A stretch of DNA of 64,000 nt, from sequence record SRR31156797_1306; one strand, 5' to 3'. A program made the translations under genes and the position numbers. Shown here piece after piece: positions 42,056-64,000 of this stretch (its first letter is position 1; each line of letters starts with the position of its first letter). Under the pieces are notes generated by a model, which ran no database searches, was not told where the DNA came from, and worked only from the letters and a program-made list of their open reading frames with translations.

Positions 42056-43699
42056 TTACGGAGTTACCATACCATTCGATTGAGAAACAATCGCTGTATT
42101 TCCGTTACCAAATTGTTCCACTACAGACTCATGTCCAAGACCTGACTGGTATACATTTACATCATTATAACTACCAACTTGTAAAGTATATGAAGAATTA
42201 TCTTCACCTAACTGAACTGTTTTAGCAATATTTCCTTCGCCAAATGCCTGAATAGAAAGAGCTGAATTGTCATCACCTTCCTGAAGGATTAAAGCAGAAC
42301 TATTTGCAACGAAATATTGTCCAATTCCTGCTTCGTTACCAACACCTTCTTGTCCAATTCCTGCATAAGAATAAGCAGTATAAGCTTGCTCAACAAGTGC
42401 TAAATTATCAGTACCAATCTGTACGATTTCAGCTGTACTACCATAATTTTCAACTTGTGCAATTTCTGCTACATTATCAACACCATCTTGTCCGATGTAA
42501 GCAGTAGCATACATGTTATCTTCCTGATAGATATAAGCTTCGTTTGAAGCATTGTATTGCTCAACTAAAGCTCTATTGAATTCACCACCTATTTGCTTAA
42601 TTTCAGCAACTTGTCCATTTCCATATTGCTCAGCAATTGCAGTATTGTAAAAACCATCTTCCTGATTAATTTTTGCATCGTGGTTTTCACCTACTTGCAA
42701 TACACCTACATAATTTAATTCACCTCTTTCCTGGAATACATTTGCATCATTGTTATCACCAATTTGGAAAACCTGTGTTGCATTGTTTTTACCAAAATAT
42801 TGCTTGGTGAAAGCATAGTTAGAATTACCTACTTGTTGAGTTTCGCTATAGTTATAAGAACCATAATATTGAGAAGATCCTACATAGTTATTATCTCCAT
42901 TTTGCTTAATAAAGATCTCATTATTTTCGGTAGTACTTTGAGAACCGTAAGCATAATTATTGTTACCGCTTTGCTTAATCAATAAATCATTGTCAGTACC
43001 ATACCACTGATATACGTCTGCATCATTTTCATCTCCATTTTGGAAAACTTCAGCATTATTATCACCACCTAATTTCTGATCGATCATTGCATCATTCGAT
43101 GTACCAATTTGAGATACAAGTGCATAATCATTAGTAGTGATGTATTGCTTGATATTAGACAAGTTAGATTCACCAAACTGACTTACAATAGCTCTATCTT
43201 CACGTCCTTCTTGAGTAACGTACGACTGATTTAATCCACCAAATTGCAATACGAAAGCAGACTCTTTAGTCGCGTGCAATTGATCTACCTTAGACATATT
43301 AAGCATACCCGTTTGAAGAACAGTTGCTGAATTTTCGGCTCCTCCAATTTGATTAACCAATGAAATATTCAACAATCCAAATTGATTCACATAAGCTGAA
43401 TGTTCTTTACCTCTTTGAGCTAGTAAAGAAATATTTGAAGTACGATTCTGAACTAATGTATAATCATTTGATTTTCCTCTTTGATCTGATAAAGAGATAT
43501 TACCAAAACCATTTTGTTTTACATCTAATTCATTCCCATTTCCTTTTTGGTTATTATCATTGAAATTTAACATGCCAACCTGGTTAACTTTGGCAGTGTG
43601 GTTTTTTCCTTTTTGATTTACATCTGATTTATTGATTTGTGCTACTAGCATTCCACTAAAGCATAAACTTGCCATTGCGGTAAATAATAATTTTTTCAT
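42056..43699 (-). CDS. Long curlin-repeat (CsgA/CsgB-like) secreted protein
   Basis: Signal peptide, then continuous N-x-[AS]-x-[VIL]-x-Q-x-G-x-x-N repeats to the C-terminus. Q/N/G-rich. Confidence 0.88.
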   Translation of the reverse strand: MKKLLFTAMASLCFSGMLVAQINKSDVNQKGKNHTAKVNQVGMLNFNDNNQKGNGNELDVKQNGFGNISLSDQRGKSNDYTLVQNRTSNISLLAQRGKEHSAYVNQFGLLNISLVNQIGGAENSATVLQTGMLNMSKVDQLHATKESAFVLQFGGLNQSYVTQEGREDRAIVSQFGESNLSNIKQYITTNDYALVSQIGTSNDAMIDQKLGGDNNAEVFQNGDENDADVYQWYGTDNDLLIKQSGNNNYAYGSQSTTENNEIFIKQNGDNNYVGSSQYYGSYNYSETQQVGNSNYAFTKQYFGKNNATQVFQIGDNNDANVFQERGELNYVGVLQVGENHDAKINQEDGFYNTAIAEQYGNGQVAEIKQIGGEFNRALVEQYNASNEAYIYQEDNMYATAYIGQDGVDNVAEIAQVENYGSTAEIVQIGTDNLALVEQAYTAYSYAGIGQEGVGNEAGIGQYFVANSSALILQEGDDNSALSIQAFGEGNIAKTVQLGEDNSSYTLQVGSYNDVNVYQSGLGHESVVEQFGNGNTAIVSQSNGMVTP

Positions 43700-45616: not shown

Positions 45617-46636
45617 TTATTCTGGCTGAAAAGATGATTTTCTTAAGATCATACCATAATCATTTTCTTTCATCAACTTCTCTAAGGTATAATCCTTATT
45701 CTTTTTCATGAATTCCTTTACAATTTGTAAACCTATCCAAATTCCGGTTCTCGAAGGAGATTCCTGAGGCATTCCTGATGTATTTGGTCCATCATTTATG
45801 TACTTGATAATAGTTCTATGCTGTGTATTGAACAAATGTTTTTGCTCTATAATATATCCCCAAATCAAATCTTCACTCTCCTGACACCAAGCCAAATCTT
45901 CTTTTGAATATTTCATGATATCCGCTTCAGATTTATCCGGCATAACTTGTTGAAGAAAGTATCTTATTTTTCCTTGATATATCATATTACTAATCAAGTC
46001 ATCCTTTTTTGGCAGGAAAGGAAACTCGGTTAATCCATAAGCCAAAATCACATCCTGAGCCACTCGTTTGGGAATCATATTTTTCCTGGCATACATTGGT
46101 GTTCTTAAAAGAGAATAGTATTCACATTCTTCACCCAAATATTTATCCAAACTAATGCCAACAATATCCTTTGCTACCACAATAGATTGATTAAAACCTG
46201 AAACTTGGGCATAAAATTTAGGCAATCGGTGATCAGGAAAATAATATTTTAAATATTTAAAAGCTTCCGTCAGTTCCGTTTCTTCTTTTTCGAGAGTAGG
46301 GAAAACTTCAAGAACCGTTACACTAACCTGCGTCATGGTGGTATCAAACAAGAATTTATTCAAATATTCCATATAATTAGGAACATCTGTATTTCCCAAG
46401 CCAATTACTTTGTTACTATACATGGAGAGATATTCACCATACTTTTCTTTAAATTTTTCAAGATTAGGATCCTCTTTCAAATCAAAAAGATCCTTATCGA
46501 ATCGATTGATTTTCACCTCAAGTTTAATATCCGAAATATCGGGGCGTTTTGAATTCGTATTGCAAGAGAAGAGTGTGAATACACACAATAGTAATATCTG
46601 AATGTTAGTACTTTTCTTCAAAAATGTCATCAACAT
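45617..46636 (-). CDS. gldB: GldB-like gliding motility lipoprotein
   Basis: Lipobox LFSC, RFDKDLF, ISLDKYLG, MIYQGK, ESPSRTGIWIGLQIV. Confidence 0.82.
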   Translation of the reverse strand: MLMTFLKKSTNIQILLLCVFTLFSCNTNSKRPDISDIKLEVKINRFDKDLFDLKEDPNLEKFKEKYGEYLSMYSNKVIGLGNTDVPNYMEYLNKFLFDTTMTQVSVTVLEVFPTLEKEETELTEAFKYLKYYFPDHRLPKFYAQVSGFNQSIVVAKDIVGISLDKYLGEECEYYSLLRTPMYARKNMIPKRVAQDVILAYGLTEFPFLPKKDDLISNMIYQGKIRYFLQQVMPDKSEADIMKYSKEDLAWCQESEDLIWGYIIEQKHLFNTQHRTIIKYINDGPNTSGMPQESPSRTGIWIGLQIVKEFMKKNKDYTLEKLMKENDYGMILRKSSFQPE

Positions 46637-49817: not shown

Positions 49818-52289
49818 TTATTCCTGTAAATAAACACGCTTAACGCGACGGGAAACGGTAGTAAGAATTTCGTAGGGAATTGTATCGAGTTGTTGAGCCA
49901 GCTCGCTAACCGGATGTTCGTCGCCAAATATAATAACTGCATCGCCTTCGTGAGCAGTCACACCAGTAAGGTCTATCATGCTCATGTCCATACAAACATT
50001 GCCTACAACAGGACATAATCTGCCATTTACCAACACCTTTCCGACTCCATTGCTAAGTCTACGACTAAAACCATCGGCATAACCAATTGGAATAATTCCA
50101 ATGCGAGTATCCTCACTTAAAACACCCATGCGACCATAACCAACGGTATTTTCTTTAGAAACTTCCTTAATTTGCGATATGGTAGTTTTAAGAGTACTCA
50201 CATTCATCAATTTGTCCTGATGAACCGGACTTATTCCATACAAGCCAATGCCCAGGCGGACCATTTCGAATTGTGCGTGCGAAAATCGTTCTATACCAGC
50301 AGAATTCAGCACATGGCGATCTATTTTGTAATCGAATTGAGATCTTATTTTATCACTCCACTTGCTAAACAATTCAATTTGCTGAGTGGTATAATTGTCG
50401 TGTTGTTCTTCGTCGGCACCTGCCAAATGTGAAAATACCGATCGTAGATAAAAGAACTCATTATCATGAGTGGCTTCAATTAATTCGTCCAAATCATCCT
50501 GCATAAAACCCATTCGATGCATTCCTGTATCCAGCTTGATGTGAATAGGATAATTCTTTACCAAATTCTGTCGCAATGCTTTTTGGAATTCTTTAAGGAT
50601 TTTGATGTTGTAGATTTCGGGTTCGAGCCTGTACTCTATCATGGTTTCGAAAGAGTGCGGTTCTGGATTCATCACAATGATAGGAATGTTGATTCCAGCA
50701 TTTCGCAACTCCACACCCTCATCGGCAATGGCAACAGCCAGGTAATCTACCCTGTGATATTGCAGTAGATTGGCTATTTCTGTTGATCCACTTCCATAAG
50801 AGAATGCCTTTACCATTACGGTAAGCTTTGTCTCTGGTTTAAGCAAGGATCTAAAATAATTCAGATTGTGCACCATGGCGGTTAAATCGACCTCTAAAAC
50901 CGTTCGATGCGCCTTAAATTGCAATGCTTTTGATATTCTTTCGAAGTGAAAATCACGAGCTCCTTTAATCAGAATTAATTCATCGTTAAACTGATTTCGA
51001 TTTAGATCGGATAGAAAAATATCGGTTGATGGGTAAAAAGAAGCCTCGCCCTCAAACAATTCAGCTAGCGATGATATTCTTTCTCCAATTCCAACGAGTC
51101 GATCAAGTTTCTTTTTTTCGATTAGCTTAGCTACTAGTTTATATAGTTTCCGGTCTGAAACACCCGCCTGATAAATATCTGATAAAATGAGCGTCTTTTT
51201 TTTATCATGTTGCTGGCGATTCATTAAATCAAGAGCAATTTCGAGGGAACCCAAATCAGAATTGTAGTAATCGTTTATTAAAGTACAGTTTCCAAAACCT
51301 TCCTTTATTTCCAATCGCATTGCAATTGGTTCCAGCTTAATCATTGCCTTTTTTAAAACCTCAATATCTACATCCAATATCATTGCTGTAACATAGGCAG
51401 TAATAGCATTGTTAACAGAAGCACGATCGGTAAACGGAATCACAATTTCGTTTTCGATACAATTGACTTTATAAATGATTCGCGTAAAGTTTTCTTCAAC
51501 TTTTTCCTTAAGGATCATAAAATAAGCATACTTATTTCTTGACCAGTTAATGTGTTCCTGCTTACGCTCCAATCCCTGTACAAAGGAACGTTCAACCAAT
51601 GAATCGTCGGAACAATAAACCACTTTTTCACAACTTGAGAACAAATTGATCTTCTCGTAAATAAGATGCAGTTTTCCTGTAAAATTTTCGCGATGTGCTT
51701 CTCCCAGGTGCGTAAATACGCCAATGTTTGGCTGTATGATCTCTGCAAGTCGCGACATTTCATTCGGCTGAGAAATTCCGGCTTCTATAATTGCCAGGTT
51801 AGCCTCCTTGTTCATGTTCCACAAAGATAAAGGAACACCAACCTGCGAATTGTAACTCTTTGGGCTTCGAACAATAGTAAATGATTCATTCAATAACTGA
51901 TACAACCACTCTTTTACGATGGTTTTTCCGTTACTTCCCGTTATTCCAACTACCGGATAAGAAAATTGTTCCCTATGATATTTACTTAGTTGCTGAAGTG
52001 CATCCAGGGTATTTTCAACCAGTACAAATCCCGCTTCCGGGTAATTTTGAATTTCTACCTCAGTATTGCTGATCACAAAAGCTCTTACGCCTTTTTTATA
52101 CAAATCAGCTATATAAGTATGTCCATTGTGGCGTTCACCAACAAGGGCAAAAAATAGCGTTTGCTCTGCAATTAATAAAGATCTGCTATCGATAGACAAT
52201 GATCGTACACAAATAGAAGAATCACCCAAAAGTTTCCCTTCAGTAATTCTGGCAATCGATTCAATTGAATAGCTATTATCAGATCTCAT
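49818..52289 (-). CDS. alr: Bifunctional MurF-like ligase / alanine racemase
   Basis: MurF-like part (DSR, ITGSNGKT, SYNSQVG, NDYYN) fused to Alr (MVKAFSYG, HIKLDTGMHRMG, VRLGIGLYG, GYADG, CMD, TIPYE). Confidence 0.95.
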   Translation of the reverse strand: MRSDNSYSIESIARITEGKLLGDSSICVRSLSIDSRSLLIAEQTLFFALVGERHNGHTYIADLYKKGVRAFVISNTEVEIQNYPEAGFVLVENTLDALQQLSKYHREQFSYPVVGITGSNGKTIVKEWLYQLLNESFTIVRSPKSYNSQVGVPLSLWNMNKEANLAIIEAGISQPNEMSRLAEIIQPNIGVFTHLGEAHRENFTGKLHLIYEKINLFSSCEKVVYCSDDSLVERSFVQGLERKQEHINWSRNKYAYFMILKEKVEENFTRIIYKVNCIENEIVIPFTDRASVNNAITAYVTAMILDVDIEVLKKAMIKLEPIAMRLEIKEGFGNCTLINDYYNSDLGSLEIALDLMNRQQHDKKKTLILSDIYQAGVSDRKLYKLVAKLIEKKKLDRLVGIGERISSLAELFEGEASFYPSTDIFLSDLNRNQFNDELILIKGARDFHFERISKALQFKAHRTVLEVDLTAMVHNLNYFRSLLKPETKLTVMVKAFSYGSGSTEIANLLQYHRVDYLAVAIADEGVELRNAGINIPIIVMNPEPHSFETMIEYRLEPEIYNIKILKEFQKALRQNLVKNYPIHIKLDTGMHRMGFMQDDLDELIEATHDNEFFYLRSVFSHLAGADEEQHDNYTTQQIELFSKWSDKIRSQFDYKIDRHVLNSAGIERFSHAQFEMVRLGIGLYGISPVHQDKLMNVSTLKTTISQIKEVSKENTVGYGRMGVLSEDTRIGIIPIGYADGFSRRLSNGVGKVLVNGRLCPVVGNVCMDMSMIDLTGVTAHEGDAVIIFGDEHPVSELAQQLDTIPYEILTTVSRRVKRVYLQE

Positions 52290-53776: not shown

Positions 53777-54490
53777 ATGTCAAAATTATACTTAGTTCCG
53801 ACTCCAATCGGAAATCTAGAAGATATTACCCTAAGAGCAATTAATGTATTAAAGAGCGTTGATCTCATTTTAGCTGAAGATACAAGAACTTCAGGCTTTC
53901 TTTTAAAGCATTACGAGATCAGCAAACCATTGATGTCTCACCATAAATTTAACGAGCACAAAACCTCCGAAAATATCGTAAAACGTATTTTAGCGGGTGA
54001 AACCATTGCTCTTATTTCTGATGCTGGAACTCCCGGTATTTCTGATCCTGGATTCTTTTTAGTAAAGCATTGTGCAGAACAAGGAATTGAAGTGGAATGT
54101 CTTCCTGGAGCTACAGCTTTTGTACCTGCCCTGGTTAATTCTGGTTTACCTTGTGATCGATTTTGCTTTGAAGGTTTTCTACCTCAAAAAAAGGGTCGTC
54201 AAACCAAACTGAACGAATTAGCAGAAGAAACACGCACTATGATTTTCTATGAGTCACCTCATCGCTTGGTAAAAACTTTACAGCAATTAGCTGAAGTTAT
54301 GGGTGAAAACAGAAAAGCTTCTGTATCGAGAGAATTGACAAAATTGCATGAGGAAAATGTCAGAGGTACACTTACCGAATTAGCAAATCACTTCAATTCA
54401 AAAACTGTTAAAGGCGAAATTGTACTTATTGTAGAAGGTAAAGTATTCGAAAAAAAGAGGAAAGAATACATTAAGAAAGACAGACAGTAG
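53777..54490 (+). CDS. rsmI: 16S rRNA C1402 2'-O-methyltransferase
   Basis: PTPIGNLEDITLRA, AEDTR, SDAGTPGISDPG, FEGFLP, YESPHR, RELTKLHEE. Confidence 0.97.
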   Translation: MSKLYLVPTPIGNLEDITLRAINVLKSVDLILAEDTRTSGFLLKHYEISKPLMSHHKFNEHKTSENIVKRILAGETIALISDAGTPGISDPGFFLVKHCAEQGIEVECLPGATAFVPALVNSGLPCDRFCFEGFLPQKKGRQTKLNELAEETRTMIFYESPHRLVKTLQQLAEVMGENRKASVSRELTKLHEENVRGTLTELANHFNSKTVKGEIVLIVEGKVFEKKRKEYIKKDRQ

Positions 54491-54559
54491 CAGTTAGCGC
54501 AAAAATCGGAGTTTGGGTTTAGGGTTACAATATTATGCTATCCTTTATACTTGTAATTT

Positions 54560-55618
54560 TTAATCTTCGTGTGAGAATTTCGGACATGAGATTGCTTTAT
54601 CTCCAAGTTTCTTAACTTTTTGACGACGTTTAAGCTTACGTATTTCTCTTGGATTGGAGTAATTGTAATTGTAGGTTAAAGAGATCTCCAAGCCACCTCG
54701 ATTTGAAGATGCAGTTTGTAAATCGGATACATTAATATCGTAGGAAATTAATACTTTCAAACGCTTTTTTTCGTATCCGAAAACCGGAATAATATCCTGA
54801 GAAAAACGATACCACATACCATAATGCAAGATGGTTCCTTTTTCACCAAATAACATCATTGCATTTGCACCGGCAATCCATTCGTTTGCATCCTTCTCGG
54901 TGGTATGCATAATTTCAGGTTTGATATACATTCTGGAACTAATACGGCTTTCGAAACCTCCATGCCAGGCAAATTTACGCTTTAAGTTATTGGTAATTTC
55001 ATAAAACGATTCGTTGGGCTGATTGATATGACTCACTGCAGTTCCCATAAAATATTTGGTTTTCCCACGAAAATAGGTCATCATCATACCTGCCGAGAAA
55101 TCGGCATAAAATAGCGATTGAGTACCCAATGGTTCACCTGATTGATAATTGGGATCGAATATGGTTCCATCCCACTGATCATCGAAAACAAGCTTATTGT
55201 AATCAACCGACTTATTAACCATTTCAACACCAATTCCGGCGTGCAAGAACAAAGTATTTCCAGCATTTAGACTTTTGTTTAAAGAACCCGCAAACATTAC
55301 CTGTGTGGTTTTTAAACTACCCTCACCCGCTTTATCATTAAATACCATTCCTCCAACTCCAATCCAGGAAGAACTTAGCAACTGTGTTGATAATTTACCA
55401 TCAACAAAAACAGCTTGAGATACAAAAGGTGTCGTAACACTGTTCCATTGGTTACGATAATTCATTCCTCCACGAAGGTTATAATCTGAATTTCCAGTAA
55501 GCGCAGGATTTAACAATAATGGGATAGAATAGAACTGAGAAGAGTGTACACGCTGAGCCGAGAGCTTAAAAACTCCCAATAAAAAAATCGGCAATAAAAT
55601 CAGAATATACTTTCTCAT
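54560..55618 (-). CDS. PorP/SprF family T9SS outer-membrane protein
   Basis: Signal peptide, SQFY..PLLLNPALTG, YRNQW, amphipathic beta-strands, SYD...S.L...GGLEISL, terminal CPKF. Lies next to a type B CTD gene. Confidence 0.92.
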   Translation of the reverse strand: MRKYILILLPIFLLGVFKLSAQRVHSSQFYSIPLLLNPALTGNSDYNLRGGMNYRNQWNSVTTPFVSQAVFVDGKLSTQLLSSSWIGVGGMVFNDKAGEGSLKTTQVMFAGSLNKSLNAGNTLFLHAGIGVEMVNKSVDYNKLVFDDQWDGTIFDPNYQSGEPLGTQSLFYADFSAGMMMTYFRGKTKYFMGTAVSHINQPNESFYEITNNLKRKFAWHGGFESRISSRMYIKPEIMHTTEKDANEWIAGANAMMLFGEKGTILHYGMWYRFSQDIIPVFGYEKKRLKVLISYDINVSDLQTASSNRGGLEISLTYNYNYSNPREIRKLKRRQKVKKLGDKAISCPKFSHED

Positions 55619-55830
55619 AAACACTTTCAAAGGGTTATCCGATTTTCAACATCACGATCAACAAGAAAGATAAAACCCCCAAACAAAAATATGAAAATGG
55701 GTAATATTATTGTATTACCCAAACATAAAATATCTATTTGATATTAAATATAGTCGCCTTTTTTGGCGGTTTAAATATAATTAATCGTATTTAATTTAAA
55801 TATTAAAATATCCTTAATTCATCAAATATC

Positions 55831-58359
55831 TTAGTAGAGTAGTGTAACATTACCTCTTTTCTGCATAGATGCGCCATCAAGTAAGGTCACTTTCAAGAAA
55901 TAAACATATACATCCATGTCCTGCTTCTGTCCACGATAAGTTCCATCCCATCCTACATCCTGACGATTGGATTGGAAAATTTTATGTCCTAATCTGTTGT
56001 AAATAATCAAGCTCATAGAAGCTATATTATTTCCCCTTACAAAAAGAACATCATTCTTTCCATCACCATTTGGAGAGAACCCTGTTGGTAATCCCACAAA
56101 TTGGTCACCTTCCGGATAAGATACATTTACAGTATCTCTTCCCATACAACTTTGTTGATTGGTCACCTCTACCCAGTATTCACCTGCCTGATCGACAATA
56201 ATTTTCTGAGAAATCTCATCATTCGACCAACGATAGAATGAACCATCATTCTGAGCGTCTAATTCCGCTGTTTCACCTGCTGATAAAACCAAATCATCAC
56301 CTAAATCAACAATTGGAGAAGCATTTACAATTAATTCGATACAATCACCTTCAGTATTTCCAAAAGGATCGGTTACTTCTACACAATATTTACCAGTTTG
56401 ATCAACAAAAATACCTTTATCTGTTGATTCTGATGGAATCCAACTATAAGTAGGCTCAGCACTAAATGTACGGTCAATAGTTGGTTCAAGGTATACTCTA
56501 TCACCTTCACAAATTTGAATGTCACCACCTAAATCAACAGAGAATTTATGACCATCTTTTCTTATCACGCTTACTTCATCACTATTGGTACAACCAAATT
56601 CTGATGTCACAAGAACTGAATATACATTCTCATCGCTCACTGTGATCGTTTGTGTTACATCGCCAGTATTCCATTCGTAAGAACCAGTTAAACCTTCTGG
56701 TCCGGCATCTAATGTAGCTGTTTCTCCATCGTACAATACAATATCTTCACCCAAATCAACAATTGGCAATGGATGAACATCTACAAGAATTTCATCCGTT
56801 TTCTCATTTCCAATTCCATCTCTTACAATTACTGAATAGTTTCCTGATTCCGTAACTGTTAAAGTAGATGTATTTGCTCCATTAGACCACAAATAAGTGT
56901 AATCCTGTGTTATTGTAGGATTTGGATTCAATACAATTTCATCACCTTCACAAATATCTTTATCATCACCAAGGTTAATCGCAAATACATCATTAACACT
57001 TGATATTACAATTTCATCACTAGCCGAACATCCATTTGAGTTGGTTACCGTAACACTGTAAGTATTACTTGTACTTACCTGAATGGTTTGAGTAGTTTCT
57101 CCAGTAGACCATTCATAATCGTTACCGGCATTTTGTGCATCAAGTGTAAGAATTTCCCCTTCTGCTAACTGATAGTCATCTCCTAAATCGACAACAGGAG
57201 CTGACCAAACTGTTACATTAACAACGGCTGATGATTGTTTACCCGTATTTTTATCTGTAGCAGTTACAGAATAAATTCCAGTTTCACTTACCGTTAAAGT
57301 TGACCCTACTGATCCGTCAGACCACAAGTAAGAGTAATCACCATCAAAATCGATAACAGGTGTTAGAACTCTTGTTTCTCCAGAACAGAAGGCGATATCA
57401 TCACCTAAACTTACAACAAATGATTCTACCACTTTGATATCAGCATAAATTGTATCTCCAGCACAATCAAATGCACTACGTTCTATCAATTTAATTTTAT
57501 AATCACCTGGTGTATTTCCCCATTGAACATCAAAACTTAGTTCGCTATGGAAGTTATCACTCATTCTTGTGGTACTTTCATTCAATACTGTTGCATCTGC
57601 AGGAACAAAAATTTCATAATTTTCATTCTTCTCAATGGTTGCAGTATATGCCTGAATTGTACCTGCCTGAATAACCGGATTGTAATCGCCAAATACCGTA
57701 TTTGGTAATGCCATCACATCCACCTCTAAGGTTTGATTGGCTAAATCCTCTTCAACCGGAATTCCTGATAATGTTTTGGCTTCAACCAATAAAATTTCCG
57801 CTCTGTGAGTCTTACCTGAAGTATTAGGTATCTCCAATTCAAACTCAAACTTATTGGTATAAATTTCATTCGCACCAGTAGGCATTTCTGCAGGTGCTCT
57901 ATCAACAGAGTATTTAAATGTCCAAGGTTTTGGTCCGGTATAATTTACCGTCACATTAACCATACCATTGGCATCTCCACCATTATTTTGAGCACAAACA
58001 TAAGGCACTTCTAAATCTTCAAATACAGCTGTTGGCGCTGATTCATCAACTATAACTAGCATAGTTAACCCTTCACCAAAACAGTGCGTTCCTAAATCCT
58101 CAGGATACACTTTTACTTCATAAGTTCCAGCGTTTACAAACTGATAATCTCCAGATTCGAATGTTTTAGAAGCCAAATACGCTACAGCACCCGTTGATGT
58201 ATTGGTAACAGACCAATGATACTTGTAAGCTGCATTCTCATCCACTTTAAAATTAAGTGTTGTTCCCTTAACTACATACTGCTGCGACACAGCCGCCAAT
58301 CCTCCTAAAAGGATCAGCAGTGCGCTTAGAAGTGTTTTATGTAGTAAGGTTCTTATCAT
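55831..58359 (-). CDS. T9SS type B CTD cargo with tandem Ig/PKD-like domains
   Basis: Signal peptide, six (V/I)xLGxD repeats, C-terminal PTGFSPNGDGKND...IYNRLG...GWDG...KRGNVTLLY (CHU_C/TIGR04131-type). Confidence 0.93.
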   Translation of the reverse strand: MIRTLLHKTLLSALLILLGGLAAVSQQYVVKGTTLNFKVDENAAYKYHWSVTNTSTGAVAYLASKTFESGDYQFVNAGTYEVKVYPEDLGTHCFGEGLTMLVIVDESAPTAVFEDLEVPYVCAQNNGGDANGMVNVTVNYTGPKPWTFKYSVDRAPAEMPTGANEIYTNKFEFELEIPNTSGKTHRAEILLVEAKTLSGIPVEEDLANQTLEVDVMALPNTVFGDYNPVIQAGTIQAYTATIEKNENYEIFVPADATVLNESTTRMSDNFHSELSFDVQWGNTPGDYKIKLIERSAFDCAGDTIYADIKVVESFVVSLGDDIAFCSGETRVLTPVIDFDGDYSYLWSDGSVGSTLTVSETGIYSVTATDKNTGKQSSAVVNVTVWSAPVVDLGDDYQLAEGEILTLDAQNAGNDYEWSTGETTQTIQVSTSNTYSVTVTNSNGCSASDEIVISSVNDVFAINLGDDKDICEGDEIVLNPNPTITQDYTYLWSNGANTSTLTVTESGNYSVIVRDGIGNEKTDEILVDVHPLPIVDLGEDIVLYDGETATLDAGPEGLTGSYEWNTGDVTQTITVSDENVYSVLVTSEFGCTNSDEVSVIRKDGHKFSVDLGGDIQICEGDRVYLEPTIDRTFSAEPTYSWIPSESTDKGIFVDQTGKYCVEVTDPFGNTEGDCIELIVNASPIVDLGDDLVLSAGETAELDAQNDGSFYRWSNDEISQKIIVDQAGEYWVEVTNQQSCMGRDTVNVSYPEGDQFVGLPTGFSPNGDGKNDVLFVRGNNIASMSLIIYNRLGHKIFQSNRQDVGWDGTYRGQKQDMDVYVYFLKVTLLDGASMQKRGNVTLLY

Positions 58360-58371
58360 TTATTTAAACGT

Positions 58372-59046
58372 TTAGTTTAATGTTAGATTCGTAATAACTG
58401 GTTTAGGATATACTACGATATTTTTATCGTCATCAGTAGCATTTACAACAACATCATCAGCCGATTTTGCTGAGTTAATTACAACTTTCCAATTCTGAAC
58501 TGTTGATTCATTATTAACAAATGTATGAGCTACATCAATAGTATGATCCCCATTTATATCTGCAACTTCGATATTATCAAAACCTGGAACTACAACATCG
58601 TTGTTATCCATAATTGAGTAAGTCAAAGTCCATGGTTGTGCACCGGTATAAGTTACGATAACTGGTGTGCTTCCATTATCAGCAATGGTTGTAGCGGCTG
58701 AACAAACCCCAAGTACATCACCTGCATCAGCAAATTCAACAGTTGGTGTACCCAACACTTTCACTCTTTGCTCAAACGGTTCACTCTTACAACCATTTAC
58801 ATCAGTTGTAACTACACTTATTGTGTACATATCAGCAACCGTTGGCCAAGTAAACGTAATTGCGCTTGTTGTTTCTGCAATAGCTACAGTTGTTCCGCCA
58901 TCGCCTACAACTGTCCATGCAAACGTACTTCCGTGCGTATGAACCGCTGTTAAATTTTGACTTGTTCCACCTGTTACTTCTGTTTGAGCATTTGCAAGCC
59001 CAATAAAAGTAAAGGCAAAAATGAGTAATGATAGTATTTTTTTCAT
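58372..59046 (-). CDS. Secreted two-domain Ig-like protein (array member 1)
   Basis: Signal peptide ANA-Q, NGC and GVC cysteines, YTGAQPW shared with the cargo N-terminus, tail VYPKPVITNLTLN. Confidence 0.85.
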   Translation of the reverse strand: MKKILSLLIFAFTFIGLANAQTEVTGGTSQNLTAVHTHGSTFAWTVVGDGGTTVAIAETTSAITFTWPTVADMYTISVVTTDVNGCKSEPFEQRVKVLGTPTVEFADAGDVLGVCSAATTIADNGSTPVIVTYTGAQPWTLTYSIMDNNDVVVPGFDNIEVADINGDHTIDVAHTFVNNESTVQNWKVVINSAKSADDVVVNATDDDKNIVVYPKPVITNLTLN

Positions 59047-59067
59047 AGTACTATAATTTAGTTTCTA

Positions 59068-59829
59068 CTAAAACTGAATATCGTCAACAGTTGGAAGTGC
59101 ATGAGAAGTTCTTGTATGAATATGTGTTGTCTCATCCAAATCCTTTTCCACACCAGTACCATTTTTAGCTTTAAACAAACGAATTACATAATTTTGTTCT
59201 GCTAATGGATTAAGGTCAATTAAATCAATATTAGGTATTGTGATAAAATAACTTCCATCTTCCTGTGTTGTACTTACGGATAACTCAACAGCTTCAGCTT
59301 CAACAAGGCTATTTACCGTATACCACACACTAACAGCTTTACCAGCTTCATGAACTAGACCTAAACCGCTTAAAGTAACCGGAATTTTCACATTATCACC
59401 AGTTAAATTAACAGAACAATCATCTGAAACATTAGATGCAAATACAACATCCATATCATTAGTAGCTTTAAGAATTACATGCAAAATTTTAAAGTTAGGA
59501 CAGCCATCAACCTTACTGGTTTTTGTAAGCTTTAGATAGTAATCCTTATCTGCTACAGGTGAAGGACCATCCCAAGTGATACTAACAGAAGCCGTATTCT
59601 TTGCCCCATTGAAAGTTACCTCTCCACCAGCTTCATTACCAGGTGTACAGTCTTCATCTGTATATACTTCCCATTCAAAATCAAAATTTGCATCTGGTGT
59701 AACATCATAAACATTCGTCGATCCTGCATAAACTGTTTGTGTTGTAGCCATCGTAACTCCAACTTCCTGTGCCATTGTACTGCTCAAGAAACCAAAACAG
59801 ATTGTAAGTAATAGTATAAGTTTTTTCAT
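59068..59829 (-). CDS. Secreted two-domain Ig-like protein (array member 2)
   Basis: Signal peptide TMA-Q, VYAGSTNVY, SITW, DGC, DDC, tail HALPTVDDIQF. Confidence 0.85.
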   Translation of the reverse strand: MKKLILLLTICFGFLSSTMAQEVGVTMATTQTVYAGSTNVYDVTPDANFDFEWEVYTDEDCTPGNEAGGEVTFNGAKNTASVSITWDGPSPVADKDYYLKLTKTSKVDGCPNFKILHVILKATNDMDVVFASNVSDDCSVNLTGDNVKIPVTLSGLGLVHEAGKAVSVWYTVNSLVEAEAVELSVSTTQEDGSYFITIPNIDLIDLNPLAEQNYVIRLFKAKNGTGVEKDLDETTHIHTRTSHALPTVDDIQF

Positions 59830-59853
59830 GTCGTATAATTATTTATTGTTTTT

Positions 59854-60576
59854 TTAATAGTTTATATCATCAACGATAGGAATACCATACAGTGTTCTTG
59901 TATGAATATTTACTCCTCCTGTTAGTGTCACTTTTATATCTCCTCCGTACTTGTCCTTAGCAGAGAGGATGGTAATTATTTGGTTTTTATCTGTATGTTC
60001 TGGTATAATGGCAAGATCATTAAAAACTAAACTCTTGCTCTCTGTTACAGTTATTGGAGTTGCCTCAGGCGCACCATCAATACTGTAGTAGACTTGTATT
60101 GGATAAAATTTACTATCAACTATCCCACTCGTCTCAATTGTTACTTCTGTCTCAAACGTATTTCCTACATTCGAACAATCATTCGATGCCAATTCTTTAA
60201 ATTCAATCGTGGCACTTTCGATCACTTCTATTGCAAATGCTCTTCTTGTTGAACATCCACCCAAACCATCATTGAATTCCTCAACGATTAAATAATATTT
60301 ACCAGGTTTCTCCCAGGTAATATCAACATTTGCCGCATTGTCAATTCCATCCTTAAACGTGAATTCGTCGGCTGCAGCAGGATTTGCATCTTTCTGATCT
60401 GCAAAATCCAACACCTTGTAAATTTTCCATTCACATGCATTACCAGCATGCAAGGCTAAAGTTGCCTTATGAGTACTCCCATGCAAAAACACAGCATCCT
60501 GTGCACTCGCTGTTGCAAGCACAAACACTCCTAATATGAGCGTAAGCAGAATTCTATGGATGAGAGATTTTTTCAA
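59854..60576 (-). CDS. Secreted two-domain Ig-like protein (array member 3, TTG start)
   Basis: Signal peptide ASA-Q, HGSTH, DITW, GGCSTRR, NDC, tail YGIPIVDDINY. Confidence 0.85.
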   Translation of the reverse strand: MKKSLIHRILLTLILGVFVLATASAQDAVFLHGSTHKATLALHAGNACEWKIYKVLDFADQKDANPAAADEFTFKDGIDNAANVDITWEKPGKYYLIVEEFNDGLGGCSTRRAFAIEVIESATIEFKELASNDCSNVGNTFETEVTIETSGIVDSKFYPIQVYYSIDGAPEATPITVTESKSLVFNDLAIIPEHTDKNQIITILSAKDKYGGDIKVTLTGGVNIHTRTLYGIPIVDDINY

Positions 60577-60618
60577 TTAATTGTATTTAAATTCTAAAAT
60601 TCTTGTTTGACTTTTATA

Positions 60619-60643
60619 ACCTTCCCGACAATGTCGGGAAGGT
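60619..60643. promoter_or_regulatory. Perfect intergenic hairpin inside the array
   Basis: ACCTTCCCGACA-A-TGTCGGGAAGGT. No U tract follows on the coding (minus) strand. Confidence 0.7.
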
Positions 60644-60674
60644 ATTTTTAGCCTTATAATTTATTCTTTAAGAA

Positions 60675-61742
60675 TTAATCAACAGATATTATCATTTGAG
60701 TATCTGGCGAAGCCTTTATTACAAAATCTGTTGCCTCTTTATTGCCAGTAACATTATTGAATGTTTCAAACTGATCTGCAGAAGCAGTTGTTATGTAGGC
60801 TGTAGTATTGCCAGTTGTTACACCTGAATTTTTCTCACTAAGGTTAAACGTGATATCAGCATCAGTACTTGTTCCTAATACATTTTGGAAAGTAACTTTC
60901 AAATAAGCTACAGGATTACCTGTATTCACAGTAATTTTACCAGTTCCAGTATCTGAAGTTCCAGCTGAACCTCCACCTATCGCATCAAGTACTTCTATTG
61001 CTAAATCAGTTCCATTCGCATTGGTCAAATTATAATCAAATCCCCAAGCTCCATTCCATGGTTGAGTTCCAGTCTTCATACTAATTTGATAGTAAACGGA
61101 TGTAGTTCCAAGCGCTGCTTTCTTCGCTGTAGCATCTAAACCATTAGCAAGAATACTACCTGAGAAAGAATTACATGTTGCTAAACTTTGATCTGCAGCA
61201 CCAGTATAAACTACATTATCCTCAGGATTAATCGCAGCAAGAATAAAGTCAACACCCCCTGAAGTTACTGAAACAAAGTACCTTCTTCTTGCAGAACAAA
61301 AGGTTGCGTCAGCTCCATTATATTCTTCCACTTCAACCGCATAAACACCAGCATCAGGAGTATCCAACCATTGTACACCAATAGAATGAGCACTCTGTGC
61401 AGAATATTCTCCAGCCGTACCTAAATTCCCACCAGGAAATTTAGTTGCAAAATCAGCTCCCCCTGGAGCATAATTCACAAATTGAAATTTAGTAAAATCT
61501 GTTAATAGAGTACTAGTACCTCCACTAACAGTAAAAACTCGCCATGTGTAATAAGTATTTTCATGTCCTGTAATTGGAGTATTTGCACCATCCAAGTTTA
61601 CTTTAAAACCATGAAAAGAACCTACTGAATGATCAATAGCATTCGCCTCTGTTGATCCATCATTTGTACCAATAGCCATTACTGCATTGGTAGAAAGCAT
61701 TATGCAAAAGCACAATCCGATTGACATTAATATTTTTTTCAT
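60675..61742 (-). CDS. Secreted two-domain Ig-like protein (array member 4, longest)
   Basis: ATG at 61742 (MKKILMSIG), VGSFHGF, YTW, VQW, VEEY..TFCSARRR, ATCNS, tail IKASPDTQMIISVD. Confidence 0.85.
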   Translation of the reverse strand: MKKILMSIGLCFCIMLSTNAVMAIGTNDGSTEANAIDHSVGSFHGFKVNLDGANTPITGHENTYYTWRVFTVSGGTSTLLTDFTKFQFVNYAPGGADFATKFPGGNLGTAGEYSAQSAHSIGVQWLDTPDAGVYAVEVEEYNGADATFCSARRRYFVSVTSGGVDFILAAINPEDNVVYTGAADQSLATCNSFSGSILANGLDATAKKAALGTTSVYYQISMKTGTQPWNGAWGFDYNLTNANGTDLAIEVLDAIGGGSAGTSDTGTGKITVNTGNPVAYLKVTFQNVLGTSTDADITFNLSEKNSGVTTGNTTAYITTASADQFETFNNVTGNKEATDFVIKASPDTQMIISVD

Positions 61743-61778
61743 AAGGCTATATATTATTTTATTAAGCATTAACTAATT

Positions 61779-62660
61779 TTAATTTGTTTGAATCTCAGTT
61801 GTTGTTGGCACTGACCAAACAATAGAAGTTGCTGTTCCTGCAAATTCTGCCCCACCTGCTTCTTCTGACTCAAGGGTTCCGTAAAGAACATCTTCACCAG
61901 CATCAATATTAAATGTAATAGTTACATCTTCGTCAATCCAAAGATTAGTCACAGATGCTGTAGCATTAACTGTAGTAACACCAGTTGGAACAATTATATA
62001 TCCATCTCCATCTACAGTTAATGTATGATCCGTACCATCATTATACTTATAAGTAGCATTTACAGTAGCAGTTTTATCGGCAGAAACAACCGGCTTAAAC
62101 TTCCAACTATTAACTGTACCTGTCATGGTAATGTTGAAATCTCTTGGAGTAGAACCCAACTGAGCGGCATCTGGAGTATTACCTGTAAATAAAGTACCTG
62201 AAGCTGTATTACAACCATCAGCTGTAACAGCAGCAATCTGAATATCGAATGCATTAGGAATTACATCAATTTGAATTCTTCGCTTACTAATACAACGATT
62301 TGCAGAGTATTCTTCAACAAATAAATAGTATGTTTTTCCACTCGCTGCTGCATTCCAAGTTATATTAATCCTGAACAAATTAGCAACATCAGTACTTTTA
62401 TCCCAAGCATTATCTGCATTATCAACCTTTGTTACAGCATAATCACCATCGGTAGCCGCTATATCTCCAGCTTCATTTGTTGCTAAATACCATTTATAAG
62501 TATTACCCACATGTACTGCTTCTTGAGTAGCTCCATTATCTGCAGAGTTCACAAAATAAATATGAGTACCTCCAACGTATGGATTTGTTCCTGATTGGGC
62601 AAACACATTAATTCCTACAACCAGAAATAAAACAGTTATTATCCCTTTTAATAATTTCAT
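61779..62660 (-). CDS. Secreted two-domain Ig-like protein (array member 5)
   Basis: Signal peptide VFA-Q, PYVGGTHIY, YKW, NITW, VEEY..NRCISKRR, DGCNT, tail VWSVPTTTEIQTN. Confidence 0.85.
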   Translation of the reverse strand: MKLLKGIITVLFLVVGINVFAQSGTNPYVGGTHIYFVNSADNGATQEAVHVGNTYKWYLATNEAGDIAATDGDYAVTKVDNADNAWDKSTDVANLFRINITWNAAASGKTYYLFVEEYSANRCISKRRIQIDVIPNAFDIQIAAVTADGCNTASGTLFTGNTPDAAQLGSTPRDFNITMTGTVNSWKFKPVVSADKTATVNATYKYNDGTDHTLTVDGDGYIIVPTGVTTVNATASVTNLWIDEDVTITFNIDAGEDVLYGTLESEEAGGAEFAGTATSIVWSVPTTTEIQTN

Positions 62661-62682
62661 AATATTTAATTTTTACTAGTTA

Positions 62683-63498
62683 CTAATTAAAACGAATATT
62701 CGATGTATTCGGAAGTGCATCAATTGTAAGCATTTGCTCTTTATTTCCAGTTCCATTATCTGGAGTAACAATTGAACCTATTTTGGCTTTACCATCTGAA
62801 ATTTCTAATGTTACACTTTGAGCTATTGCAACAGGTCCCGATAATTCAACTTCAATCGTCACACTTTTTTTATTTCCTGGAATCGAAATCCCATTGTAAT
62901 CGGTAACTCCACTAACTCCATTCACTGTTACATTATCAATTGAATAATCTACACTTGTTTTTGCTAGAGTAAAATCAAACTCCCAAGTATCAACTGGTAA
63001 AGCATATGTTACATCATCGAGGGTAACAGTAAATTGAACTGTTGTTGTTGCAGAAGCACCTTGAGCTAAAATATGGTTATCTTCATCATGACATTCATTA
63101 GCATTATCACCTGCTATTAAGAAGAAAGTATTACCCTTAACTGTAATATCCGCCGATCTTACAGAGATACAACCGCCAGCTGGTTTTGATTCCTTAAATT
63201 GAATCGTAAAATTAGGATTACCATCAGGACTAATAGAAGCCCAATCTTTATTCCAGGTAATAACCAGCTTTGCTTCATTTCCAACTTTTGTTTCAGCCAT
63301 AAAGACAGTAGGTTGAGAAGTTAAAGCAACCCCTGATGCATCAGCAACTATCCAAGATGCTGTATTATTTGTCCCATCTTCCATGGTAACCAAATATGTT
63401 TGCTGAGAGTTTTGATATGGATTTTGTGCATCCTGAGCAAATAGATTACTCGTCAAACCAATCAAAGTGGCAATAAGTACAATCTTAAATATTTTCAT
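62683..63498 (-). CDS. Secreted two-domain Ig-like protein (array member 6)
   Basis: Signal peptide LFA-Q, PYQNSQQTY, VITW, GGCISVR, NECHD, TWEFDF, tail IDALPNTSNIRFN. Confidence 0.85.
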   Translation of the reverse strand: MKIFKIVLIATLIGLTSNLFAQDAQNPYQNSQQTYLVTMEDGTNNTASWIVADASGVALTSQPTVFMAETKVGNEAKLVITWNKDWASISPDGNPNFTIQFKESKPAGGCISVRSADITVKGNTFFLIAGDNANECHDEDNHILAQGASATTTVQFTVTLDDVTYALPVDTWEFDFTLAKTSVDYSIDNVTVNGVSGVTDYNGISIPGNKKSVTIEVELSGPVAIAQSVTLEISDGKAKIGSIVTPDNGTGNKEQMLTIDALPNTSNIRFN

Positions 63499-63526
63499 GA
63501 TATATAGTTTTGTCGTTTTCAGTCAA

Positions 63527-64000
63527 TTAAAAAGTAATACCAGACGCAGCAGGTAGAGCTTTAACTATAGTAGAAGCAGTGTTCGTATTAGTGTCAGGAG
63601 TACCTTCAGCAGTTTTAGTTACACCATTTACGGCAAAAGCTTCTGATAATACAAGCTCTACTGTAACCTGTTCGTTCGCATTACCTGTAACATCAACTTC
63701 AATAGTACGTGTATCACCAACAGAAACACCCAAATCTGCATATTTTCCACCTGATTCAGTAAGAGTACTAGCTCCGATTCGCACTGCAGAAACTGAAGGA
63801 GAACCAGCTCCGGTAAGGTTTACTGCGAATTTATACTCCCATGTATCTATTGTCCATGCAGCATCCTTAGTCATACTAACGTCAAATGTCACAGTTGTAG
63901 TTGCATTATCATTCAAATTAGAAACCAAGTCATGCAATGCATTACATTGAGTTGAATTTCCTTCTGCAATTGTTACATCGAAAGAATTATTGGTCTTATA
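63527..64000 (-). CDS. Array member 7, 5' end outside window
   Basis: The frame is open to base 64000: YKTNNSFDVTIAEGNSTQCNALHD...TWEYKF... with tail VKALPAASGITF. Confidence 0.85.
   Translation of the reverse strand, partial: YKTNNSFDVTIAEGNSTQCNALHDLVSNLNDNATTTVTFDVSMTKDAAWTIDTWEYKFAVNLTGAGSPSVSAVRIGASTLTESGGKYADLGVSVGDTRTIEVDVTGNANEQVTVELVLSEAFAVNGVTKTAEGTPDTNTNTASTIVKALPAASGITF

Follow-up and report, generated by a model that had tools for sequence, protein, structure and literature searches.

How a row of small secreted proteins that carry no CTD of their own relates to the single T9SS cargo encoded beside them is the question raised by an operon on the minus strand of a 64,000-nucleotide stretch of DNA (the window) from Marinifilum, a marine member of the Bacteroidota. 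Between positions 54560 and 64000 an array of small-protein genes is followed by the gene for a larger protein, here called the anchor, and then by porP/sprF. We propose with moderate confidence that these genes specify a 'split SprB-like' heteromeric fibre, assembled tail-to-head in gene order, and exported and anchored via the one subunit that bears a CTD.

All features of the locus lie on the minus strand. The array enters at the window end with the C-terminal 157 residues of a small subunit (63527-64000), which has 269 residues in a 97%-identical locus, L001, and continues with the genes for p271 (62683-63498, 271 aa), p293 (61779-62660, 293 aa), p355/364 (60675-61742/61769), which is the largest small subunit and has insertions in both domains, p240 (59854-60576, 240 aa), p253 (59068-59829, 253 aa) and, nearest the anchor, p224 (58372-59046, 224 aa). 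The anchor, or base subunit, of 842 residues (55831-58359) and the carrier gene, porP/sprF (54560-55630, 356 aa from a TTG start, with the true start possibly a few codons later), complete the locus. The original prediction had counted at least seven co-oriented, divergent paralogues; there are six complete genes and one cut by the window end, all encoding unannotated two-domain secreted proteins. The size range that it gave, 224-355 aa, applies to the complete genes, except that an alternative upstream start would extend the largest from 355 to 364 aa.

From the end of porP to the window end the intergenic gaps measure 200, 12, 21, 24, 98, 36, 22 and 28 bp. The 200-bp gap between anchor and porP contains a terminator-like hairpin (55698-55721, from a consensus scan only), and the 98-bp gap that follows the p355-type gene contains a GC-rich 11-bp stem-loop inside the operon (60619-60643), which is found at the same position in the window and in L001-L006, with compensatory change in two of the 11 pairs across the six sequences compared; it matched no Rfam family. 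RNA-library contigs from two studies cover parts of every gene, an indication of presence only. GldB is also encoded within the window.

Related loci indicate that the array runs past the window end, up to a large lectin-type adhesin. In L001 the 269-residue subunit is preceded by an 801-residue adhesin with HYR, F5/8 type C and SprB repeat regions, the C terminus of which is the same kind of short tail as that of the small proteins; upstream PA14 and choice-of-anchor L proteins end in a tail of related type, P-x-P-x-G-I-F-F. The tip is more likely such a large adhesin of lectin type, whose gene lies upstream, beyond the window, than one of the small proteins, among which it had originally been sought.

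The small proteins are related, but distantly. Significant pairwise similarity within the window is confined to p253 with p240 (1.5e-16) and p224 with the anchor (1.3e-8), and it is once the orthologues from six related loci are added that one transitive phmmer network joins all of them, revealing deep paralogy. In an alignment of 34 sequences W50, W88, C108, C134 and P233 (p240 numbering) are invariant, which recovers the predicted plan of Y-x-W, I-T-W, GC hairpin, early Cys and P-containing tail, and an A-Q at the end of the signal peptide is near-invariant. Each small protein consists of a Sec/SPase-I signal, present in every protein of the locus, an Ig/PKD-like domain 1, a Calx-beta-like domain 2 and a tail of the form P-x4-I-x-hydrophobic. 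An [AGSV]-Q site follows the hydrophobic region in 163 of 170 family members.

As a description of the fold, 'pilin-like' is not supported. The AF2 model of p240 (pLDDT 81.3, pTM 0.70), for which 17 orthologues were found, comprises two β-sandwich domains and an unstructured tail (coil, block pLDDT 61); domain 1 resembles an intact sandwich from which no strand is obviously missing. Structural neighbours include PKD (Z 7.3-7.5) and Calx-beta (Z 8.0) domains, and the folds listed by the searches are generic ones (Ig, PKD and Calx-beta), a listing that does not itself exclude other families. Of 34 scanned members of the arrays, none reaches the cut-off of a Pfam family (the best PKD match, at E 0.0012, lies below gathering), and none gives a fimbrillin hit at E <= 0.1. 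The seven small proteins of the window match no NCBIfam model and, at E <= 0.1, none of them hits a CTD model of either type, A or B; a type B CTD profile built here matched none of 85 small representatives. The nearest ESM Atlas clusters to p271 are unnamed Bacteroidota proteins.

The anchor alone among the proteins of the locus has a type B sorting domain for the T9SS, and it lacks a terminal tail. A signal peptide is followed by a family module (residues ~26-225), the part homologous to p224, by several Ig/PKD-like repeats with weak PKD/Ig_7 matches, and by the sorting domain at residues 756-840 (TIGR04131, 49 bits, cut-off 35; CHU_C, PF13585, 58 bits, cut-off 27), the architecture that had been predicted. 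The neighbouring gene is a PorP/SprF gene, again as predicted, with 195.3 bits against TIGR03519 (cut-off 90.55) over profile positions 1-291 of 292 and 148.5 bits against PF11751. Its product has a basic C-terminal tail with a single conserved Cys (…SCPKF…), a motif that is kept in the anchor-adjacent PorP of all the Marinifilaceae-type loci listed and absent in L006, L033 and L034; the SprF-type Cys-x-Cys motif is absent from the tail. Three whole genomes with the locus (G002-G004) encode GldJ and six to 10 PorP proteins each, and in G002 the locus PorP is the weakest-scoring of nine paralogues.

The association of array, anchor and carrier extends well beyond the window. Wherever the downstream end of a locus could be seen, in 30 of 30 cases, the gene after the array encodes a family module joined to a type B CTD, and PorP/SprF adjoins the anchor in 26 of the 30, in agreement with the linkage that was foreseen. 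Six distant loci have a minimal anchor of one module plus CTD (331-348 aa), and in four of these an adjacent PorP/SprF is missing; orphan type B cargos served by a shuttle encoded elsewhere are known (PMC12618676). In each of the three whole genomes the family is confined to this one locus. This linkage bears on the idea that the array arose by tandem duplication of secreted Ig-like proteins that act independently and are merely co-transcribed, without co-assembly, with a T9SS adhesin. Arrays of tandem paralogues occur commonly in Bacteroidota and the direct evidence of binding, considered below, is weak, both of which suit that idea; it is very unlikely, in our judgement, given the constant presence of the module-CTD gene, the single locus per genome, the conserved tail in 80 of the 85 small representatives and the ordered junction in a fusion model.

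Within the arrays orthologue groups follow one another in a conserved order, and array blocks are reshuffled between genomes. Divergent paralogues beside a conserved anchor, together with such reshuffling, might recall a reservoir of variable cassettes that would serve the antigenic or phase variation of a single expressed adhesin. Each gene, however, has its own start, signal peptide and short gap to the next, and the orthologue groups keep their order, which makes a cassette store scarcely credible.

Whether the small proteins leave the periplasm is a question on which their larger relatives are informative. The family profile finds 2154 representative clusters, and among large relatives with tandem domain 1 repeats 14 of 15 have a T9SS CTD (six type A, eight type B). 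Domain 1 is thus the repeat unit of exported T9SS adhesins, an observation that tells against a periplasmic role in which the small proteins would serve as chaperone-like or assembly factors for the adhesin or anchor and remain outside the exported structure. Such helpers would be expected to have Sec signals without a known outer-membrane export signal, as here, and seven of 50 structural neighbours of domain 1 are pilus-chaperone N-domains, at Z 6.8-8.2, a range that the search tool rates as common. Five to eight distinct helpers per adhesin would, however, be unusual, the module and tail are common to small proteins, adhesin and anchor, and the small proteins diverge fast, like surface proteins, while the N-terminal module of the anchor is far more conserved; we consider helpers quite unlikely.

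If the small proteins do form part of the exported structure, the tail is the candidate connector. The tail motif is terminal in the 80 small representatives noted above versus none of 34 giants, and it matches the sequence that links the repeats of single-chain T9SS adhesins: in P0025 and P0093 the stretch joining tandem repeats carries the motif. The C terminus of P0093 is itself a tail, cut off immediately ahead of the Cys of what would be the next repeat, and the mature N termini of the small proteins begin just past that cut point. Sixteen aligned two-module proteins retain the tail at the module junction, and in an AF2 model of a fusion (overall pLDDT 82.4, pTM 0.68) the junction is ordered, with pLDDT 90-96 compared with 37-50 for the free terminal tail, the tail being mostly not β-strand.

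The identity of the partner is suggested by comparison of tails between loci. For p240-type bodies from 19 loci, which are phylogenetically related and have few tail classes, the tails have a similarity of 0.76 if the next gene is of the same type and of 0.29 if it is different, an effect reached in none of 10000 label shuffles; with respect to the previous gene the values at the same loci are 0.48 and 0.40 (874 of 10000 shuffles). The pattern can also arise without function, since recombination in the conserved p240-type body would move the 3' end along with the block downstream of it. Across the full set of 157 neighbour pairs the correlation of tail with the next domain 1 is weak (rho 0.13) and no better than that with the protein's own domains (0.17 and 0.20). 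The p224 tail type, …KPVITNLTLN, lies upstream of the anchor in many loci.

A different use of the same tails would have every tail-bearing protein, small or large, bind singly to the N-terminal module of the anchor, giving a menu of alternative surface proteins, displayed by one type of CTD-bearing anchor, and no chain. One core motif is indeed common to all tails, the PA14 and choice-of-anchor L proteins have related tails, as if cargos competed for one acceptor, and the N-terminal module of anchor orthologues from Marinifilum, Labilibaculum and Ancylomarina keeps 46-98% identity (43 of 44 hits), as would be expected of a common docking site. Yet this arrangement leaves unexplained why the domain 1 invariants are kept in every small protein if only the anchor copy accepts a tail, and the conserved order of orthologue groups, the variation of tail classes along the array in step with the next gene and the occurrence of two-module fusions all tell against it; we regard single docking as unlikely.

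Modelling of subunit-anchor pairs, which the original prediction had called for, gave a result that stands apart from its controls, albeit in a weak score range. For the anchor module with p224 the median score was 0.56 (0.67, 0.56 and 0.55) and the best of three controls scored 0.00; contacts agreed between runs to at least 91%, with partner pLDDT of at least 80. Of 78 solved complexes 51 reached the mark applied, as did two of 108 mismatched pairs; at scores of 0.60 or below it was reached by only five of the 78 and by all four passing mismatches of 180. The predictor rates this score range as more often wrong than right unless the pairing was likely beforehand, and it returned no interface for the pair. 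In an older blind test of the complex predictor seven of 44 neighbouring genes passed. Evidence for direct subunit binding, which comes from this one prediction, is weak.

Returning to the gene-ordered fibre, the tail of each protein would dock on domain 1 of the protein that the next gene encodes, giving a chain from the adhesin (tip) through seven distinct stalk subunits in gene order to the anchor (base). Only the tail-to-next-gene direction connects every protein with the one CTD. The CTD of the anchor would carry the chain through the T9SS translocon and hold it on the PorP/SprF carrier, with the CTD-less subunits riding along; such a ride is plausible because the T9SS transports folded proteins, and we found no precedent in the T9SS literature for co-export of CTD-less partners. 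The conserved cysteine in the C-terminal tail of the carrier may link it to GldK/PorK in the way that SprF is linked; a fibre held like this could move as a gliding adhesin. Differing amounts of the distal and proximal parts are probably set by the stem-loop that follows the p355-type gene. Assembly from separately made bead-like proteins would be a new way to build cell-surface fibres. More tentatively, and at a level of confidence that falls short of probable, the locus may represent a new class of surface fibre, i.e. a gene-ordered heteropolymer of CTD-less Ig-like subunits, each with a single gene, with a swappable lectin tip, T9SS piggy-back export and a carrier cysteine-tied to GldK/PorK. 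If so, neither T9SS piggy-back export nor a 'modular' fibre for gliding or adhesion would have an earlier example.

We found no published description of this system, consistent with the view that its layout has no described counterpart. It would share with chaperone-usher pili Ig-like subunits, a lectin-domain tip adhesin and ordered minor subunits, and domain 1 resembles chaperone N-domains (Z up to 8.2); some pilus operons also contain a stem-loop, as does this locus. In contrast to chaperone-usher pili, the putative donor here is C-terminal and export would go via the T9SS; no usher or chaperone was found among the locus genes scanned or, at E <= 1e-10, among the window's 43 further ORFs that are 150 aa or longer, as the original prediction had stated.

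Type V pili polymerise by strand exchange, and their pilins are lipoproteins matured by proteolysis. The predicted distinction from them is upheld, a lipobox-like motif occurring in only two of 170 family members and the base carrying a T9SS CTD instead of a lipoprotein anchor; the scan of 34 members above gave no Pfam fimbrillin hit. The likeness lies in an operon that encodes tip proteins, several subunits and an anchor at the base, as set out, along with terminal-strand polymerisation of FimA/Mfa1, in portions of PMC8512630.

With SprB/SprF of Flavobacterium johnsoniae gliding the locus has in common a type B CTD cargo with Ig-like repeats, an adjacent cognate PorP/SprF, and gliding-related genes, i.e. 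GldJ in the genomes of relatives and GldB in the window; the large domain 1 relatives are, like SprB, single-chain T9SS cargos. Compared by description, SprB is one chain of 6497 aa (from part of PMC9251779), whereas the putative stalk here consists of seven or more separately secreted CTD-less proteins. The carrier's periplasmic C-terminal tail resembles, again by description, that of SprF in having cysteine, but has one Cys in …SCPKF… where SprF has Cys-x-Cys; sections of PMC12635249 report that the SprF twin-cysteine motif bonds Cys343 of GldK and that Porphyromonas gingivalis PorG has a single-Cys tail. Anchoring of type B cargo by association with a PorP-like protein is described in parts of PMC9143113 and PMC12618676. 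The systems in those parts of PMC12618676 have a single cargo per shuttle, with CTD-less partners unmentioned there, whereas the present locus has many. Fjoh_3952/3951/3950 of F. johnsoniae and PG1035-PorP of P. gingivalis likewise pair a type B adhesin with a PorP-like shuttle, together with a PorE-like protein, and the triad of type B cargo, PorP-like and PorE-like proteins is also present in L006 and L033.

The simplest account of the locus (minus strand, 54560-64000) is that it is a split form of an SprB-type adhesin. The components named in the original prediction, i.e. tandem co-oriented small genes, an anchor whose C-terminal domain (CTD) is of type B and a PorP/SprF gene, are all present on the minus strand. 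In transcription order, a small gene cut by the window end (63527-64000) comes first, followed by six complete small genes encoding secreted two-domain proteins of 271, 293, 355/364, 240, 253 and 224 aa (named p271 and so on by length), the anchor gene (842 aa; 55831-58359) and the PorP/SprF gene (356 aa; 54560-55630), with intergenic gaps of 28, 22, 36, 98, 24, 21 and 12 bp from the cut gene to the anchor and of 200 bp between the anchor and PorP/SprF genes. The anchor matches TIGR04131 (49 bits, cut-off 35, residues 756-840) and CHU_C (58 bits), and the PorP/SprF protein matches TIGR03519 (195.3 bits, cut-off 90.55) and PF11751 (148.5 bits). None of the seven small proteins reaches a curated Pfam cut-off or matches an NCBIfam family, and a scan of 34 array members, taken from seven loci, likewise gave no Pfam score at the gathering level.

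Within the window, phmmer finds significant similarity for just two pairs, namely the anchor N terminus with p224 (1.3e-8) and p253 with p240 (1.5e-16). When orthologues from six related loci are added, all of the small proteins fall into one transitive phmmer network, which bears out the claim that they are divergent paralogues, and in the window as in the six loci the orthologue groups follow one another in a constant order. The sequence motifs originally picked out correspond to the invariant columns of a 34-sequence alignment (W50, W88, C108, C134 and P233, p240 numbering) and to a near-invariant Ala-Gln at the signal-peptide end. An N-terminal Gln is typical of Bacteroidota signal peptidase I substrates. 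Since an Ala-Gln-like site is present in 163 of the 170 family members of the fetched homologous loci and a lipobox-like motif in two, the small proteins are signal peptidase I substrates and not lipoproteins, in agreement with their proposed distinction from lipoprotein pilins.

The description 'pilin-like', if taken to mean a fold, is not supported, because Foldseek searches against the PDB yielded no specific fold but generic tandem Ig proteins only (TM 0.22-0.36), and a wide VIA search gave scores (all Z ≤ 8.2) in a range (Z under 8) that the tool rates as common. VIA splits the p240 model into domain 1 (27-121; Ig/PKD-like, best Z 8.2) and domain 2 (120-234; Calx-beta-like, Z 8.0). Pilus-chaperone N-domains account for 7 of the 50 VIA rows for domain 1, a likeness that we discounted given the same common range of scores. 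The ESM Atlas search returned unnamed Bacteroidota clusters first and then PKD_6 at 0.79, and the best match of p240 (98% identity) is a hypothetical protein of Marinifilum sp. N1E240. Two finer structural features were considered and set aside: a C108-C134 hairpin disulfide, whose register fits (108 + 134 = 2 × 121) by arithmetic on modelled secondary structure that we do not rely upon, and a domain 1 lacking the A strand, which fits the sequence phasing and is not confirmed by the model.

A profile of the 34 small proteins retrieved, from 1.84 billion representatives, 2154 clusters at 50% identity with E ≤ 1e-3, 952 with E ≤ 1e-10 and 140 with E ≤ 1e-30. Among the best 148 representative matches, the 85 small proteins (≤ 400 aa) include 80 with the tail motif, i.e. 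the short Pro-containing C-terminal end, and none matching the type B CTD profile built for this analysis; the 29 of middle size (401-900 aa), mostly two-module proteins, include 20 and 4, respectively, and the 34 giants (> 900 aa), with 6-27 copies of domain 1, include 0 and 8. A T9SS sorting domain was found in 14 of 15 large relatives scanned with NCBIfam (6 type A, 8 type B), implying that single-chain surface proteins of the T9SS use domain 1 as a repeat unit. This kinship is to be weighed against a rival reading of the small proteins as periplasmic helpers, which has on its side their signal peptides and the lack of a CTD of their own.

In two single-chain tandem-repeat relatives from the profile search (P0025 and P0093), the stretch between the 'GC' hairpin of one repeat and the opening Cys of the next carries the tail motif (V-x-V-x-P-x-P-x-I-S/T). 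The C terminus of P0093 is a tail-like stretch that stops a few residues short of the expected next Cys, and the mature N termini of the small proteins start just past a cut point of this type, so that gene borders are offset from repeat borders. As judged by sequence, the end of each gene corresponds to the connector into the next repeat of the single-chain relatives. The tail is retained at the junction of 16 natural two-module proteins, where it is followed by what seems to be left over from a signal-peptide end. One such fusion was modelled with AF2 (pLDDT 82.4, pTM 0.68); its junction residues 291-330 have pLDDT values of 90-96, whereas the free C-terminal tail has values of 50 and 37; in the p240 AF2 monomer (pLDDT 81.3, pTM 0.70) the tail is a coil at ~61. 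The models thus suggest that the tail is ordered when the next module is present. Because the tail in the fusion model is mostly not β-strand, they do not point to a strict 'donor strand' arrangement.

Over 157 neighbor pairs, the tail correlates weakly with the next domain 1 (rho 0.13), and no better than with its own two domains (0.17 and 0.20); a global match between tail and next domain 1 was rejected on account of these weak and unspecific correlations, and single-linkage clustering of the tails, which collapsed to one class, was also set aside. The informative comparison was the one inside a single orthologue group: the p240-type body occurs in 19 loci and is followed by varied genes (p253-type, a 242-aa type and others, or at once the last subunit). 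Within this group, mean tail similarity is 0.76 with the same next gene type and 0.29 with a different one, a difference matched in 0 of 10000 label shuffles, compared with 0.48 and 0.40 for the previous gene (874 of 10000), the shuffles ignoring relatedness. Each of the three main tail classes is present on two different distal backgrounds, which indicates that several events were involved. Recombination in the conserved body, carrying the 3' end together with the downstream block, would produce the tail/next-gene pattern without functional need. A rival view takes the genes for variation cassettes. The last subunit before the anchor shows a single broad type of tail throughout the Marinifilaceae-type loci.

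Complex prediction with anchor residues 26-245 and mature p224, which yields a score without an interface and did not use the supplied alignments, gave a median of 0.56 (runs 0.67, 0.56 and 0.55) with the best of three controls at 0.00, i.e. weak support. Of 78 solved complexes, 51 passed the mark, as did 2 of 108 mismatched pairs; passes at 0.60 or under were those of 5 of the 78 solved complexes and of all 4 mismatches (of 180) that passed. The runs show at least 91% contact agreement and a partner pLDDT of at least 80. The small proteins may instead be unassembled secreted paralogues, a rival reading to which the weakness of this support lends itself, and against which stands the modelled order of the tail at the fusion junction.

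Scanning species genomes turned up six loci, from an uncultured Marinifilum (97% identity; L001), M. flexuosum (the cultured strain DSM 21950; L002), a Marinifilaceae MAG, Labilibaculum, Marinifilum sp. RC60d5 and Puteibacter; the same GTDB family supplied a further 20, and the order's other families 6. In all 30 loci with the downstream end on the contig, the array leads directly into a protein with the family module and a type B CTD, and a PorP/SprF gene adjoins that protein in 26, in line with the expected co-occurrence of homologous arrays with both partners. The six distant loci have a minimal anchor of 331-348 aa, consisting of one module and the CTD, with PorP/SprF next to it in two of them; in L033 and L006, PorP/SprF has a PorE-like OmpA protein behind it. 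There are known cases of orphan type B cargos whose shuttle is encoded at another place (PMC12618676). After the minimal anchor of L036 there is, instead of PorP/SprF, a small β-barrel protein (5120-5839) with a weak TDE1717-family score of 33 bits, below the cut-off. In the window, a Mur ligase-alanine racemase fusion (823 aa; 49818-52289, minus strand) is followed by a thymidine kinase gene, and L001-L003, L005 and many family loci have these neighbors next to the array as well, indicating that the array occupies a fixed chromosomal place.

The family is confined to this one locus in three whole genomes (G002-G004) and is present in 35 of 96 genomes of the GTDB family holding M. flexuosum, mostly as 3-9 tandem copies. 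A sample of 401 genomes from the order contained it in 20 (the reference, G002, and 19 others) and a phylum sample had any match in 8 of 401 (the array in the reference only, giant-ORF matches in seven others), counts that are too low since six candidates were scored per genome, such that the phylum sample is no evidence of absence. The anchor N-terminal module is 46-98% identical among Marinifilum, Labilibaculum and Ancylomarina orthologues (43 of 44 hits), and is far better conserved than the small proteins.

The upstream end of the array, beyond the window, was read from the relatives' loci. In L001 the cut gene encodes 269 aa, and upstream of it is a secreted protein of 801 aa that matches HYR, F5/8 type C (lectin-like) and SprB repeat and has a domain-1-like start and, at its end, a short tail of the small-protein kind; its counterparts in other loci have 714-1260 aa with Laminin_G_3, PKD_6 or HYR. 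Further upstream, past larger gaps, are large secreted PA14 or choice-of-anchor L proteins (L001:57-3062, L002:170-1815, L003:33-3803 and L005:678-5033), which end in a related P-x-P-x-G-I-F-F tail and may be alternative tips for the same fiber.

In the proposed split adhesin, seven different stalk modules would follow a lectin-type tip, all linked tail-to-head in the order of their genes, and a base subunit, the sole bearer of a T9SS signal, would be seated on its own PorP/SprF carrier. Joining of each tail to the next protein is the only direction that would link every protein to the single CTD; at the tip, the domain 1 of the adhesin itself would then stay unoccupied, and no tail would be required on the anchor. 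Hub-and-spoke display of the small proteins on the anchor is a rival arrangement, to be weighed with the strong conservation of the anchor module on one side and with the next-gene dependence of the p240-group tails on the other.

The type B cargos known to date consist of one chain each, often a giant one, which a PorP/SprF carrier holds, and T9SS cargo is generally considered to require its own C-terminal sorting domain. SprB is one chain of 6497 aa, whereas the stalk proposed here is split into separate CTD-less proteins. As the T9SS transports folded proteins, including SprB with its 6497 aa (PMC9251779), co-export of a thin pre-assembled chain is conceivable; in the full-text literature searched, no precedent for such piggyback co-export by the T9SS was found, and one T9SS article that contains the word 'piggyback' uses it of other systems. 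In line with the view that no described system has this layout, we found, in full-text literature that includes few subscription journals, no account of subunits that bear a tail, lack a CTD and go with a type B anchor, or of a T9SS-anchored multi-subunit fiber. The type B CTD, PorP/SprF and the Ig-repeat adhesin are already known; we know of no earlier record of the split architecture with its linking tails or of the large family without annotation. That the locus represents a truly new class of fiber and export mode is a real possibility, although we lean slightly against it. If the split-adhesin account is true, non-covalent assemblies would also be within reach of T9SS export and display, adhesin stalk and tip could be exchanged gene by gene, and a large family (2154 clusters), the scanned members of which have no curated Pfam or NCBIfam model, would be accounted for. 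The locus would then also provide a small tractable model for the passage of long Ig-repeat adhesins through the SprA translocon and for the coupling of the carrier to the GldK track.

The C terminus of the PorP/SprF protein (3' end, 54560-54660) is a basic extension, the single Cys of which belongs to a conserved …SCPKF… motif that is present in the anchor-adjoining PorP of every Marinifilaceae-type locus listed, including L001-L005 and L038-L057, and absent from the PorP of L006, L033 and L034. This single-Cys C-tail recalls the Cys-bearing tails of SprF and PorG: the Cys-x-Cys of the periplasmic C-tail of Flavobacterium johnsoniae SprF forms a disulfide with Cys343 of GldK, and Porphyromonas gingivalis PorG has a single Cys (PMC12635249). 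Analogy with these proteins suggests that the present carrier, too, may form a bond with GldK/PorK. In L057 (13826-16172), two tandem PorP/SprF genes follow the anchor, each with a Cys-bearing C-tail, and the last stalk protein is a two-module fusion of 453 aa. The mobile or static behavior of a type B cargo is set by the CTD-shuttle pair (PMC12618676). The three whole genomes G002, G003 and G004 have 9, 10 and 6 PorP/SprF genes, each with GldJ above the cut-off, and a GldB gliding-motility lipoprotein gene in the window (45617-46636, minus strand; PF25594, 341.9 bits) indicates that the organism has at least part of the gliding/T9SS gene set.

The array has a single long gap, just behind the p355-type gene, where a GC-rich 11-bp stem-loop (60619-60643, minus strand) lies at the same place in the window and L001-L006, is preceded by a conserved ATAAGGCTAAAAA stretch and shows compensatory change in 2 of its 11 stem pairs. 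There is no Rfam match in 54300-64000, the stem-loop included. Given that there is no U-run on the coding strand, the stem-loop may serve either in partial termination or in RNA stability, setting unequal distal and proximal amounts; pilus operons use elements of this sort. A promoter scan was not above shuffles (35 found, 40.0 expected). RNA-library contigs from two studies (three samples at most) contain parts of every gene at ≥ 95% identity, one spanning the p293/p271 border; being assemblies, they carry no transcript ends, strand or level, their uncovered parts are uninformative, and they do not amount to proof of transcription or of a single transcript. Elsewhere on the minus strand of the window are a curli-like 547-aa protein with curlin-associated repeats (42056-43699; PF07012, 219.5 bits) and a 366-aa protein (38969-40069) with two DUF1573 and two HYDIN/VesB-like Ig domains.
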